In this document: one piece after another, positions 16,195-20,036 of the stretch
Layout of the letters: each line of letters opens with the position of its first letter
Position numbering within the stretch: position 1 is the first letter of the stretch
Source of the DNA: Candidatus Dormibacteria bacterium
GTDB taxonomy: Bacteria > Chloroflexota > Dormibacteria > DASZGP01
Direction of reading: 5' to 3'
Assembly (NCBI GenBank): GCA_050998755.1
Contig: JBPCPW010000013.1
Span: forward strand, 5,668-69,667
DNA length: 64,000 bases
The notes under the pieces: model-generated
What the model was told of the DNA's origin: nothing
What the model saw: only the letters and a program-made list of their open reading frames with translations
The model's database searches: none
Translations under genes and position numbers: made by a program

Positions 16195-17099
16195 GCGACG
16201 TGAGCCTCGCGGATCGGTTGGCGGGAGCCGTGTGGGGACACCTCGCCGGGGACGCATTGGGCGTCCCGTACGAATTCAGCGGCGGCGGGTCTATCTCCGC
16301 AGTGGAATGGGGCCACGCCGGTACTCACCGCCAGCCTCCAGGAACCTGGAGCGACGACGGCGCGCTCATGCTCGCCCTCCTCGACTCGCTGCTCACGAAG
16401 GGGTTCGATGTCGAGGACCAGGGGCGGCGCGCGGTGGCATGGATGAAGGAGGGTGCCTACACCCCCGGCGGCGTGTTCGACATCGGTGTCGCGACCCGAG
16501 GCGCCCTCAACCGAATCGCCGCCGGAGGTCCGGCTGCCACGGCCGGTGGTTCGGACGAGCATTCCAATGGCAACGGCTCCCTGATGCGCATCCTGCCGAT
16601 CGCGCTGGTCGGCCGCGGTCATGATGACCGTACGCTCGTCGACCAGGCGGCGGAGGCATCCGCCGTAACCCACGCGCACCCGCGGTGCCGGGTGACCTGC
16701 GCGCTCTACACGCTGCTGGCGCGCAACCTTCTTGCGGGAGAGCGGGATCGCGAGACCGCATTTTCGAGGGCGGTCGCGAGCCTCAAGCCGTTGCTGCCAG
16801 ACGAGTGGCGGGCCGACTGCGAGATTCTCATGAGCTTCCCGGAGCCGGGCGGGTCCGGGTATGTCGTCGATTGTTTCTGGTCGGCCTGGGAGGCCTTCTC
16901 AGGGTCCGGAAACTATCGCGAAACCATTGAGCGGGCGATCCGGTATGGCCACGACACCGACACCACCGCCTGTGTGGCCGGCGGGCTGGCGGGGATCTAC
17001 TGGGGAATCGACGCCATCCCCGCCGAATGGCTTGAGGGTATGCGCGGCCGAGAGGTCGTCGAACCGCTGGTATCTGGACTGACAGGCGACCCTGATTAA
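16176..17099 (+). CDS. ADP-ribosylglycohydrolase family protein (DraG/ARH-like).
   Basis: The N-terminus LADRLAGAVWGHLAGDALGVPYEF is characteristic of the ADP-ribosylglycohydrolase fold. Start taken at the ATG at 16176; the ORF in the track extends further upstream in the same frame. Confidence 0.72.
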   Translation: MEGRAISDVSLADRLAGAVWGHLAGDALGVPYEFSGGGSISAVEWGHAGTHRQPPGTWSDDGALMLALLDSLLTKGFDVEDQGRRAVAWMKEGAYTPGGVFDIGVATRGALNRIAAGGPAATAGGSDEHSNGNGSLMRILPIALVGRGHDDRTLVDQAAEASAVTHAHPRCRVTCALYTLLARNLLAGERDRETAFSRAVASLKPLLPDEWRADCEILMSFPEPGGSGYVVDCFWSAWEAFSGSGNYRETIERAIRYGHDTDTTACVAGGLAGIYWGIDAIPAEWLEGMRGREVVEPLVSGLTGDPD

Positions 17100-18004
17100 C
17101 CTGGATCCGTGTACACCTCGTGCGGCAGCGCGACATGCACGGCCATGTCCAGGGTGAGGCGGTGCAGCGAGACCAGCGCGCGTCGACTGAGCGCGCCACC
17201 GGTGTATCCGCCTGCCAGCACAAAGGCCAGCGGGATGTCGCGCTCTGACGCCCAGGTCATCACCATCGCCTCGCGCATCTGCAGCATCGACCTGGTGACA
17301 CCCGGGAGCCCCCCGATCAGACATTTCTCGAAGGGGTCCATCCCAGCGTTGTAGATCACCAGGTCCACCTGACCCTTGACGCTGTCAAGCATCTGCGCGA
17401 CGGCCGCGAGGTACCAATGGGCGGACCGGACGATCGCGAGCCGCTGTCGAACCCCATCGGGGCGGTAGGAGTCGAAGGAAGAGACCGCGACATCCAGGTG
17501 GACAATTCGCCGGTCGCCCGCGGTGAGCTCGTGGGTGCCACCCCCGCAGTGGGCATCGAGGTCAAGCACCACGACGCGCTCGGCACCCTTCGCAAACGCT
17601 GCCTCGGCGCCCAGGACCAGCCCGTTGAAGGTGCAGAATCCCCGGCCCTCGCCCCGGCGTGCATGGTGCATTCCGCTGGACAGCGAGCCGGCGCGACCTT
17701 CGTCCAACGCCGTGACCGCCGCCGCAACAGCGCCTCCGTTTGAGGCGCAGACCGCGCGCCACAGCCCCGGGTCCCAGTCGAACCCCTGCGAGGTGGCCAG
17801 CCAGTCAGGTCTACCGGTGCGCACCGCGTTGACGTAGCCGGCATCGTGGACCGCGATGAGCTCCTCTACAGAGAGCGGCCGCGGCGCTGTCAGCTCAAAC
17901 CCAAGCGGGTCGGCCAGCAGCGATTTCACGATCCACTGCGCCTTGCGCGTCGTGTCGAAGCTGTGGCCGGCCGCGACGTAGTCGTCGCTGAAGAACAGCT
18001 TCAC
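17096..18004 (-). CDS. Histone-deacetylase (HDAC/AcuC/acetylpolyamine amidohydrolase) family Zn hydrolase.
   Basis: SGMHHARRGEGRGFCTFN and VVLDLDAHCGGGT resemble the HDAC G(F)HHA...GFC.fN and DxDxHxGdGt signatures. GTG start at 18004 overlaps the stop of the upstream paralog (GTGA). Confidence 0.65.
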   Translation of the reverse strand: MKLFFSDDYVAAGHSFDTTRKAQWIVKSLLADPLGFELTAPRPLSVEELIAVHDAGYVNAVRTGRPDWLATSQGFDWDPGLWRAVCASNGGAVAAAVTALDEGRAGSLSSGMHHARRGEGRGFCTFNGLVLGAEAAFAKGAERVVVLDLDAHCGGGTHELTAGDRRIVHLDVAVSSFDSYRPDGVRQRLAIVRSAHWYLAAVAQMLDSVKGQVDLVIYNAGMDPFEKCLIGGLPGVTRSMLQMREAMVMTWASERDIPLAFVLAGGYTGGALSRRALVSLHRLTLDMAVHVALPHEVYTDPG

Positions 18005-18684
18005 GGACGGAAGCTCCAGGCCAGGTAGAAGGCTTCGGCAAGCGCGGGCGGACGGAACAGCGCCCAGAGGCCGAAGTCGTCTGGCTCCTCGTAGACCTCG
18101 GCGAACACCGTCTCGGCGGCCCCCCGCAGGGCGGCGGTGGTGGTGGGCAGCGACTCGGTGATGTAGTTCTTGCCATCGCCGGCCGGCCCGAAGCCCATGT
18201 CGAATAGCACTTGCTCGTGGGCCACGTCGAGTGGCCGGAGGACGCATACCGGGCAGTGGTGCCGGCGTGAGTTGACAGCAGTCAGGAGCGCGCCGTCACC
18301 GTCAGGAGTCAACAGAAAGAACATCGACTGGTCGGGGGTGGTGCTCTGGAGGATCAGGTCGTCGTTCGCGGCCCCGGCGCGGAGCAGGACCGAGATTGCT
18401 CCGTCGATGAAGTCCCGGCGGACCGCGGGATCCATCGGGCGGTGATGTTTGTGGTGGGTGTCGACAACCTGGGGGACGGCGGTCCAGCTGTCGGCGGAAA
18501 ACCAGCGGTGGGTGAAGCATTGAAATAGCAGGCCGCCGTCGGGACGCACCCCCATAAGAGGAAAGGCGTGGTTGCAGGCGGGGCATGCCAGGGCCAGCTT
18601 TTCCGGCCAGGTCGGGGCTTTATGTTCAGCTCTTTTTCTCACGAACTCAGTGTCTCGTGAGGCCGCGACACATGGCTGTCGCAC
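18001..18684 (-). CDS. Hypothetical Zn-ribbon protein, paralog 1 of 3 (CPACN...CPVCVLRPL...GKNY..LP). The true start is probably downstream of 18684.
   Basis: Shares CxxC pairs and a C-terminal L..GF...G.KNY..(D)LP block with the next two genes. The palindrome at 18665-18682 overlaps the annotated start. Confidence 0.45.
   Translation of the reverse strand: MRQPCVAASRDTEFVRKRAEHKAPTWPEKLALACPACNHAFPLMGVRPDGGLLFQCFTHRWFSADSWTAVPQVVDTHHKHHRPMDPAVRRDFIDGAISVLLRAGAANDDLILQSTTPDQSMFFLLTPDGDGALLTAVNSRRHHCPVCVLRPLDVAHEQVLFDMGFGPAGDGKNYITESLPTTTAALRGAAETVFAEVYEEPDDFGLWALFRPPALAEAFYLAWSFRP
18665..18682. promoter_or_regulatory. Inverted repeat GCGACA-catggc-TGTCGC between paralog genes 2 and 1.
   Basis: 6-bp perfect arms with a 6-nt spacer; same motif family. 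Confidence 0.55.
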
Positions 18685-18709
18685 GGCGCAAAAAGGATCG
18701 ACTAACGGC

Positions 18710-19312: not shown

Positions 19313-19992
19313 GAGAAGAGCGGCCCGTCCTCGGCCTTGAGGATCCAGTCCTGGGCCCAGTCGGGGAGATCCTCGAACCTGCCGACCGCTTCGACGGCGC
19401 GGCGCAGCCGCTGTCGATCCTCGCAGTCCAGCTGGATCTCCATGAAGTTGCTGCGTAGCGCACGCAACACCCGCGCGGCGAGGCCAGGCGACGTCTCCAG
19501 CGGCGGCTCATCGCGATGGCGATAACCGCAGGGGCATGACACCTGGGGCTTCGGGGAACCGATGGGTGTGAGCTGACCCCGCCTCTCTGCCCAGCGCGCC
19601 ACGTGCCAGTCGGTGGTGCGAATGTCTGGGCGGACCGGCGCCGGTGTCTCGAACGCGGTCTCGAACAACCGCGCCGTCAGGGTCGCGAGATACTTCGCGC
19701 TGGCGGGGAGGTCGTCCATGCAGTAGTTCTTAGCCCGCCCGCCGTGGGTGAACCCGAGCCGTATGAGGGCGAACTCTGCGGCATCGGAGAGCGGCTCATG
19801 GTCGTTGACCGAGGCCCCCCACTGGCGCGAGCTGACCTCGCCGTAGACGACGCCGTTGTGCAACTTGAACTGTACGAACTCGTTGGTCTTTACCGGGTTC
19901 TCGAAGACGATGAAGTCCTCCTCCATGGCATTGGCCAGGAAGACCGCGAAAGGATGCTCGAACTGGGCTGCGCTCTGGGTGGAATTTGTCAT
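19309..19992 (-). CDS. Hypothetical protein, paralog 3 of 3 (...LIRLGFTHGGRAKNYCMDDLP...CPCGYRH). Start probably the ATG at 19992; the ORF is open up to 20046.
   Basis: Shares the L(I/V)RLGF...KNY..DLP block with paralogs 1 and 2. The palindrome at 20011-20036 would sit 20-45 bp upstream of the 19992 start. Confidence 0.45.
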   Translation of the reverse strand: MTNSTQSAAQFEHPFAVFLANAMEEDFIVFENPVKTNEFVQFKLHNGVVYGEVSSRQWGASVNDHEPLSDAAEFALIRLGFTHGGRAKNYCMDDLPASAKYLATLTARLFETAFETPAPVRPDIRTTDWHVARWAERRGQLTPIGSPKPQVSCPCGYRHRDEPPLETSPGLAARVLRALRSNFMEIQLDCEDRQRLRRAVEAVGRFEDLPDWAQDWILKAEDGPLFS

Positions 19993-20010
19993 AACCGCAG
20001 CCTGGCGGGG

Positions 20011-20036
20011 CACCGCGACAACAGCCTGTCGCGGTG
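20011..20036. promoter_or_regulatory. Inverted repeat CACCGCGACA-acagcc-TGTCGCGGTG upstream of the paralog-3 operon.
   Basis: 10-bp perfect arms with a 6-nt spacer. Confidence 0.6.

Follow-up and report, generated by a model that had tools for sequence, protein, structure and literature searches.

A 64,000-nucleotide stretch of a Candidatus Dormibacteria metagenome-assembled genome (MAG; contig JBPCPW010000013.1, positions 5,668 to 69,667 of the forward strand; hereafter the window) contains four co-directional genes, all on the minus strand, that fill positions 17096-19992: three paralogs of the TY-Chap3 family, here called A, B and C, followed by a gene for a HDAC-family zinc hydrolase. With moderate confidence, the locus is interpreted as an ADP-ribosylglycohydrolase (ARG)-centric conflict system regulated by a WYL-domain protein, in which the three paralogs and the hydrolase would form an adaptor/chaperone arm and an extra hydrolase module. 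Systems of this type were predicted by Iyer, Burroughs, Anantharaman and Aravind in 2022 (Viruses 14:1977, section 3.8; PMC9503650) and were proposed to reverse ADP-ribosylation put on host molecules by viruses. The initial annotation, made from the DNA letters, had assumed an actinobacterial host, which the Dormibacteria origin of the contig corrects. The four genes are:

19309-19992, minus strand: gene A, 227 amino acids, N-terminal TY-Chap3 domain (PF22552) and helical C-terminal domain
18710-19312, minus strand: gene B, 200 amino acids, N-terminal predicted zinc ribbon (CxxC...CxxH) and TY-Chap3 domain with an internal CPVC
18001-18642, minus strand: gene C, 213 amino acids, GTG start, predicted zinc ribbon and TY-Chap3 domain (internal C130 and C133)
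17096-18004, minus strand: HDAC-family zinc hydrolase, 302 amino acids, class IV-like subfamily (PF00850)

Both of the overlaps reported in the initial annotation are present in the sequence: ATGA at 19309-19312, where the start of B overlaps the stop of A, and GTGA at 18001-18004, where the start of the HDAC gene overlaps the stop of C. The ATG start of A (19992) agrees with orthologues of 223-225 amino acids that begin with MTNGSQF, and the GTG start of C (18642) gives a product of 213 amino acids, in keeping with four orthologues of 213-215 amino acids; the shorter ATG start called for C on an identical Logan contig (L001; contigs used for comparison are numbered with the prefix L) would cost the protein its conserved CxxC. 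Translated from GTG at 18004, the HDAC product can be aligned over its whole length with 30 homologues (N-termini MKLF/MKVY).

Genes A, B and C, which are open reading frames (ORFs) at the positions first proposed for them, are true paralogs by sequence comparison: pairwise BLASTP gives E-values of 3e-10 for A and B, 2e-14 over the full length for B and C, and 2e-8 for A and C. Smith-Waterman scores lie 15.5, 23.1 and 10.5 standard deviations, respectively, above those of 1000 composition-preserving shuffles, so high-GC composition, which the initial annotation had named as the artefact to be feared, does not explain the similarity. Its view that a small gene had been triplicated did not survive. 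Orthologues of A elsewhere (223-230 amino acids) are 40-66% identical to it, that of contig L003 being 43% identical, and the orthologue in L087 is 72% identical; B has an orthologue of 58% identity in the same position in L087, and C has orthologues of 213-215 amino acids at 55-58% identity. Each paralog thus has its own orthologues at 40-72% identity, compared with approximately 28% between paralogs, which rules out a recent local tandem triplication.

Nor can the family be called unknown, as it had been. In the HMM search proposed as a check, A passes the gathering cutoff of the Pfam TY-Chap3 model (PF22552; 38.7 bits against a cutoff of 27, E-value 1.8e-9), B matches weakly and under the cutoff (19.1 bits, 2.2e-3), and C has no direct match to the model at E ≤ 1, a precomputed PF22552 match being present on its orthologue P0123. 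In a Candidatus Dormibacteria MAG, A already bears the NCBI name 'TY-Chap domain-containing protein'. The conserved L(I/V)RLGF...KNY-type block first noticed in the three proteins is real, and in the form '..SR.W...RPL..E..L..LGF....KNY...P' it constitutes the core of the TY-Chap3 domain; its conserved polar residues (S, R, E, N and Y) suggest a specific binding site. Searches of the PADLOC, NCBIfam and PHROGs libraries returned zero matches for A, B, C or the HDAC.

The description of all three products as Zn-ribbon proteins holds for B and C, which possess an N-terminal CxxC...CxxH pair and an internal CPVC, and fails for A, which has neither; judging from the sequences, the better description is of three TY-Chap3 paralogs, two of which have a predicted zinc ribbon. 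The presumptive ligands are C16, C19, C37 and H40 in B and C20, C23, C42 and H45 in C. C42 and H45 (C numbering) are invariant in every aligned B/C-type sequence, and the four full-length C orthologues all share C20 and C23, to which B has counterparts; P0126 begins after these two cysteines. In an AlphaFold2 (AF2) model of C (pLDDT 84.8, pTM 0.83), strands 17-19, 26-32, 38-42 and 46-50 flank the ligands, and C20/C23 and C42/H45 sit at two beta-hairpin knuckles in the geometry of a zinc ribbon; CxxC/CxxH knuckles on paired beta-hairpins are thus predicted for B and C only. The AF2 model of A (pLDDT 84.8) has two domains, with TY-Chap3 first and then a separate helical C-terminal domain that has conserved CxC/CxxC...C cysteines, a conserved 'QLDCE' and a conserved '(Q)DWILKAEDGPLF' tail. 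In the A and C models, the TY-Chap3 domains appear to follow the order helix, three strands, helix, two strands, helix of class I type III secretion system (T3SS) chaperones. Proteins of the B/C type are rare: when 1.84 billion cluster representatives were searched with a profile, 55 matched at E ≤ 1e-3, about 20 of them over both modules, and a metagenome scan with C-type peptide patterns found nothing. A match of B to the Rad50 zinc hook (E-value 0.001, under the cutoff) raises the idea that its internal CPVC might bridge two subunits via a shared metal; the L004 orthologue has CDC where CPVC would be expected.

The product of the fourth gene matches Pfam PF00850 (1.3e-30), and its zinc-binding Asp/His/Asp residues are intact, as the initial annotation had anticipated: H113, H114, D148, D150, H152, D223 and Y267 are invariant in an alignment of 31 clade sequences, and the His-His pair (H113/H114), the zinc ligands (D150, H152 and D223) and the catalytic tyrosine (Y267) align with the corresponding residues of VcHdaH. 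Since the zinc and catalytic site is complete, the enzyme is probably an active amidohydrolase. The subfamily is marked by an invariant signature of its own, DLDAHCGGGT, where Cys and Gly stand for the His/Gln and Asp of the canonical D.D.H(H)GDG motif, and the further signatures FDTTRK and LHRLT. Its closest PDB entries are VcHdaH (9GKV) and 9RJE, both of class IV clade A (phmmer E-values of approximately 1e-24), and class I and II enzymes in the PDB are much weaker matches (1e-11 to 1e-13). Of the earlier label 'HDAC/AcuC-like', the first half therefore stands and the second does not: the nearest structures are HDAC11-like, of class IV clade A, and there is no acu gene context among the scanned neighbours, so AcuC identity was rejected, the JGI label 'acetoin utilization deacetylase AcuC-like enzyme' on relatives notwithstanding. 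Class IV clade A relatives have little peptide deacylase activity or none at all, and the authors of these studies suspect that the substrates are not peptides (PMC13325672; PMC11532494). Members of the clade to which the enzyme of the window belongs were found in many phyla, in at least 387 species-level genomes. Relatives with 33-52% identity are also encoded by 26 viral contigs of IMG/VR (L170-L195), with TY-Chap3 or vWA neighbours in 0 of the 26.

Five exact copies of the palindrome GCGACA-N6-TGTCGC are present in the window where 0.46 would be expected, and no shuffle out of 100 contains as many. They are confined to the interval from 12.3 to 23.3 kb and stand 22-37 nucleotides ahead of start codons. 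The initial annotation had placed two palindromic operators before the operon; palindromic operators are real, but one precedes A, a second is inside the cluster, just before C, and an N7 variant is at 20789-20807. The link to a WYL regulator that it had also drawn is borne out by an HTH-WYL-WCX (HTH, helix-turn-helix) gene, and the protein is presumed to be a repressor that binds the palindromes:

20015-20032: exact palindrome with an arm extending to 10 nucleotides, 22 nucleotides upstream of the A start
18665-18682: exact palindrome in the B-C spacer, 22 nucleotides upstream of the C start
22220-22237: exact palindrome, 23 nucleotides upstream of the ARPP-1 start
23305-23322: exact palindrome, 25 nucleotides upstream of a small ORF (23348-)
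12339-12356: exact palindrome, 37 nucleotides upstream of the DUF429-HD_4 gene
20789-20807: N7 variant of the palindrome plus an extra half-site, in the divergent VapB/WYL-regulator promoter region
20872-21864, plus strand: HTH-WYL-WCX transcription factor (Pfam WCX 6.6e-19, WYL 3.3e-13, HTH_11 1.2e-4)

Operator claims are based exclusively on exact sites, operator-like sites with two or three mismatches being at chance level (77 found, 66 expected). One of the latter, a chance-level site with two mismatches at 5720-5737, lies between the PD-(D/E)XK and PLDc-helicase genes. The exact palindrome recurs 22 nucleotides before C in L087, directly before the HDAC gene in L002 and L003, and in the spacer between the WYL and ARPP genes of L004, and a copy with one mismatch is found in L086. 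A scan of the window found no such site ahead of the PTP-SAK-ARG operon or the NadR-PnuC genes described below. In every instance the palindrome arms have the same sequence, a point in favour of recognition of the DNA by a protein; formation of RNA hairpins is the less favoured explanation, and an Rfam search at the palindromes gave no match. The leader that follows the operator is also conserved (TGTCGCGGCCTCnCGAGACA...GTG; window 18642-18685, L087 946-991, L086 1066-1111, L003 7955-8001) and holds another element resembling a half-site, GAGACA, which could be part of an extended operator or an RNA-level element. A scan for sigma-70 promoters found nothing, a result that says little for this phylum.

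The genes that surround the cassette match the published list for ARG-centric systems item by item (PMC9503650, section 3.8):

16176-17099, plus strand: ADP-ribosylglycohydrolase (PF03747, 1.5e-65), with a probable start at an internal ATG
15664-16194, plus strand: DSP-PTPase of the rhodanese-phosphatase superfamily (PTP-SAK; PF22784, 7e-22), overlapping the ARG start
12394-13821, plus strand: DUF429 fused to a RelA/SpoT-type HD_4 hydrolase (Pfam HD_4 4.2e-23; NCBIfam spoT_relA 1.5e-14)
22261-23286, plus strand: ARPP-1 protein (PF20208, 1.3e-76)
2539-9983, upstream of the system: PD-(D/E)XK protein (1038 amino acids), PLDc-ResIII-Helicase_C-DUF3427 protein (1034 amino acids) and Mrr_cat restriction endonuclease

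The ARG gene, which is convergent with the HDAC gene and abuts it, has an orthologue of 309 amino acids in L088 and matches the Tri1/DraG-like models of NCBIfam under their cutoffs. Among the genes scanned at 12-24 kb it is accompanied by no coupled ADP-ribosyltransferase or sirtuin, there being no ART or SIR2 Pfam match in that interval, although two Pfam-blank ORFs at 10-12 kb could still be such enzymes. The locus also has a one-component HTH regulator with a WYL sensor (HTH_11, WYL and WCX), two phosphatases (PTP-SAK, overlapping the start of ARG, and HD_4), TY-Chap3 proteins, and the accessories ARPP-1, Mrr_cat and PLD-helicase.

The arrangement, which had been called non-standard, is rare, but it is a conserved cassette inside a type of system that had already been predicted (PMC9503650, section 3.8). 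Contig L087 has all four genes in the order A-B-C-HDAC, with products at 72, 58, 58 and 64% identity and a 2-nucleotide gap between C and HDAC; L086 has Mrr_cat-C-HDAC; L004 has C-HDAC with a 4-nucleotide overlap, beside vWA, HD_4, WYL and ARPP-1 genes; and L002 and L003 have vWA-HDAC, L003 also carrying an A-type gene and SIR2_2 within an integrative element. The HDACs of the window and of these five contigs form an exclusive clade in a neighbour-joining tree of 163 members of the wider HDAC clade. Contig L088 has ARPP-WYL, an A orthologue (66% identity) and ARG-PTP-SAK without B, C or HDAC; B-C-HDAC is therefore a module added to this core. The linkage is drawn from six contigs, all of them metagenomic.

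Outside this sub-branch, members of the HDAC clade show scattered associations with genes of this network, independent of the cassette. An HDAC gene is followed by an ARG gene with a 4-nucleotide ORF overlap in L015 (146-1959) and L098 (2521-3764), and an ARPP gene adjoins an HDAC-clade gene in L152 (6924-8882, directly upstream), L012 and L033. In contig L084, PnuC, NadR and ARPP all lie no more than 7 kb from an HDAC-clade gene. A protein of approximately 213 amino acids with a MIDAS-like DRSGSM...T...DG motif is encoded upstream of HDAC in ten loci, mostly of Mycobacteriales:

L017, L023, L029, L036, L045, L070, L079 and L081: MIDAS-like protein gene about 200-1000 nucleotides upstream of HDAC
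L049 and L164: MIDAS-like protein gene upstream of HDAC

This protein has no Pfam match, and on the evidence of an hhalign alignment to the large vWA partner (probability 74%, E-value 2.7e-5) it may be a mini-vWA adaptor. In L085 (5899-10558), a remoter C-type protein (39% identity) occurs with a Nudix-WHD regulator of the NrtR type and no HDAC, which fits the idea that WYL and Nudix regulators substitute for each other in the ARG-centric class.

Other genes of the locus lie between or beside these components:

20481-20708 and 20062-20484, minus strand: VapB (RHH) and VapC (PIN, 1.8e-11), respectively, between A and the regulator, as in the gene calls of L001
13839-15516, minus strand: NadR and PnuC, inside the operator-bounded island with no operator of their own
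21898-22206, plus strand: small protein of 102 amino acids with a 'Luciferase' domain (PF17648, 1.6e-19)

NadR is an NMN adenylyltransferase/ribosylnicotinamide kinase and PnuC a nicotinamide riboside transporter. The 'Luciferase' gene, which sits between the WYL regulator and ARPP-1, is also present on the identical contig L001. The nuclease and helicase genes at 2539-9983 give the region the flavour of a defence island. Right after the last operator, a MazE/AbrB-type antitoxin gene (82 amino acids) abuts a GNAT acetyltransferase gene (138 amino acids; 23568-24233, minus strand), and the two may constitute a GNAT toxin-antitoxin pair; an acetyltransferase beside a system that bears a deacylase-type enzyme is suggestive. 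The small ORF at 23348-23565 (plus strand) ends with '...KFLANPRFLK' in a frame other than that of its ATG, a tail resembling the 'KFLADPRLLK' of a 59-residue protein in L004 (6564-6743) that has a hydrophobic N-terminal stretch; a frameshift, a pseudogene or faulty assembly may lie behind the break in frame.

On the interpretation of the locus as an ARG-centric system, the HTH-WYL-WCX repressor, acting on GCGACA-N6-TGTCGC, would control five units (A-B, C-HDAC, ARPP-1, DUF429-HD and the small ORF), and a variant of the operator lies in the promoter region of the regulator itself. The PTP-SAK-ARG operon has no operator and therefore may be constitutive, a sentinel that would release the first ADP-ribose-derived inducer of the WYL protein, as would fit the published scheme (PMC9503650). 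Upon induction, A and B would be made in a fixed ratio by way of the ATGA overlap, and C and HDAC by way of the GTGA overlap. The TY-Chap3 proteins would serve as peptide-binding adaptors, those of B and C having an added zinc ribbon, and C would bind the HDAC-fold enzyme in a complex, either supplying it with substrate or controlling access of the substrate. An acyl-type modification beyond the reach of ARG would be stripped off by the HDAC, either from a protein or from a small molecule related to ADP-ribose, and the putative role of the whole would be antiviral.

Several observations weigh against this interpretation. A TY-Chap3 gene is present in 0 of 160 other HDAC-clade loci (80 from GTDB and 80 from metagenomes), so a general linkage between HDAC and TY-Chap3 was rejected and the coupling is confined to one small sub-branch of six contigs. 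The neighbourhoods of the 160 loci are highly variable: among 150 upstream and 150 downstream neighbours there are 139 and 152 different Pfam families, respectively, none of which occurs more than five times. None of the four proteins is matched by a PADLOC defence model. In this enzyme, Gly (HCGGG) stands where the canonical HHGDG relay has its Asp, and protein deacylation is far from assured because activity on peptides is low or lacking in the nearest solved relatives. To our knowledge, ARG-centric systems, TY-Chap3, ARPP and this HDAC subfamily are known from computation alone.

The HDAC could instead be the harmful arm of the system, deacylating or hydrolysing an essential host or viral molecule once de-repressed, with C as its dedicated chaperone or inhibitor, comparable to class I T3SS chaperones and their effectors, and with A and B serving other clients. 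Such an effector would suit the way in which translation of C and HDAC is tightly coupled, 1:1, in four contigs, the operator directly upstream, which would keep expression off, and the position of the system among toxin-antitoxin modules and nucleases. However, in L002 and L003 the HDACs of the same sub-branch follow a vWA gene and have no C-type gene directly upstream, and most of the 387 HDAC-clade genomes have no conserved partner, which is unexpected for a toxic enzyme; this explanation is considered unlikely, if worth keeping in view. Alternatively, the enzyme might make or destroy the ligand of the WYL protein from an acyl or amide metabolite derived from ADP-ribose or NAD, such as O-acetyl-ADP-ribose, and erase no protein mark. 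The closest solved class IV clade A enzymes, which lack peptide activity and are suspected of acting on non-peptidic substrates (PMC13325672), are in keeping with that function, as are the NAD- and ADP-ribose-centred neighbourhood (ARG, PTP-SAK, HD, ARPP, NadR and PnuC), the SIR2_2 gene in L003, and the overlaps of HDAC and ARG ORFs in L015 and L098, but an enzyme of small molecules has no obvious need of a dedicated partner with a peptide-binding domain and a zinc ribbon, and signal processing of this kind is regarded as rather improbable.

The JGI label on relatives and the lack of conserved context in the wider clade would be accounted for if an ordinary housekeeping deacetylase of the AcuC or acetylpolyamine type happened to lie beside unrelated small genes. 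Such a coincidence is very hard to credit given the 4-nucleotide overlap, the common operator, and a cassette that is kept across contigs at 58-72% identity; the contigs that conserve it are not from near-identical strains (55-72% protein identity), the coupled HDACs are an exclusive clade, and the best structural relatives are of class IV rather than AcuC. A bolder version of the ARG-centric interpretation, which we hold to be quite doubtful, is that the adaptor-coupled HDAC is a second, chemically distinct 'eraser' arm, to which zinc-ribbon TY-Chap3 or vWA adaptors hand over a substrate that is unusual or not a peptide, such as a conjugate of ADP-ribose, acylated or amide-linked, that arises in infection. 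If this were true, class IV clade A HDAC11-like enzymes would gain their first physiological substrate and role, and bacteria would be seen to gather several enzymes that reverse modifications under a single WYL switch that senses a ligand.

The locus places an HDAC-fold enzyme of a class IV-like branch in a network for the reversal of ADP-ribosylation, and if that enzyme is an immune 'eraser' or processes a signal, the known chemistry of phage-host conflicts would be widened. We know of no other bacterial answer to virus-imposed ADP-ribosylation that has been proposed than ARG-centric systems, which are themselves a prediction. The context of the genes leads to concrete hypotheses, namely a complex of C with HDAC, and acyl-lysine versus acyl-ADP-ribose as substrates, and the compactness of the locus, with its defined operator and regulator and clear modules, makes it a practical starting point for experiments.

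Compared with known systems, the locus resembles the ARG-centric systems (PMC9503650) in its stand-alone ARG, adjacent phosphatase of the rhodanese-phosphatase superfamily, alarmone-type HD hydrolase, HTH-WYL regulator, TY-Chap3, ARPP, restriction endonuclease and helicase accessories, and patchy phyletic spread; the ARG-centric class, TY-Chap3 and ARPP had all been predicted in print and have since entered Pfam. The locus differs from these systems as published in the presence of three TY-Chap3 paralogs (of which two bear a predicted zinc ribbon at the N-terminus), a translationally coupled HDAC-fold hydrolase, and a visible operator regulon. The HDAC module, the zinc-ribbon subtype of TY-Chap3, the three-paralog cassette and the operator regulon are absent from the text of PMC9503650 (its main text, as distinct from its figures and supplements), and no paper linking PF00850 to phage defence was found in the literature searched. 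The enzyme shares with VcHdaH (PDB 9GKV/9GKY; Graf et al. 2024) and 9RJE (Novakova et al. 2026) an arginase/deacetylase fold of approximately 300 amino acids, the His-His pair, the Asp-His-Asp zinc ligands, the GGY tyrosine and a foot-pocket motif of the 'xGGxHH' type (here SSGMHH), but the similarity is remote (phmmer E-values of approximately 1e-24), DLDAHCGGGT replaces DxDxH(H/Q)GDG, and the gene is embedded in an ADP-ribose-centred conflict locus with which it would be co-regulated. Unlike class I T3SS chaperones and the YbjN superfamily (CesT, SycN/YscB, SicP), the TY-Chap3 proteins occur in a locus that has no T3SS, and B and C have an added zinc ribbon (predicted) and A an added helical domain. 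WYL-domain repressors of defence loci of the BrxR and CapW type have an HTH-WYL-WCX architecture and palindromes in the promoters of the genes they control and of their own genes. The regulator described here, as read from its sequence, has the same architecture and promoter palindromes, including one in its own promoter region, and differs from those repressors in that its presumed operator sequence is specific to a small group of loci.

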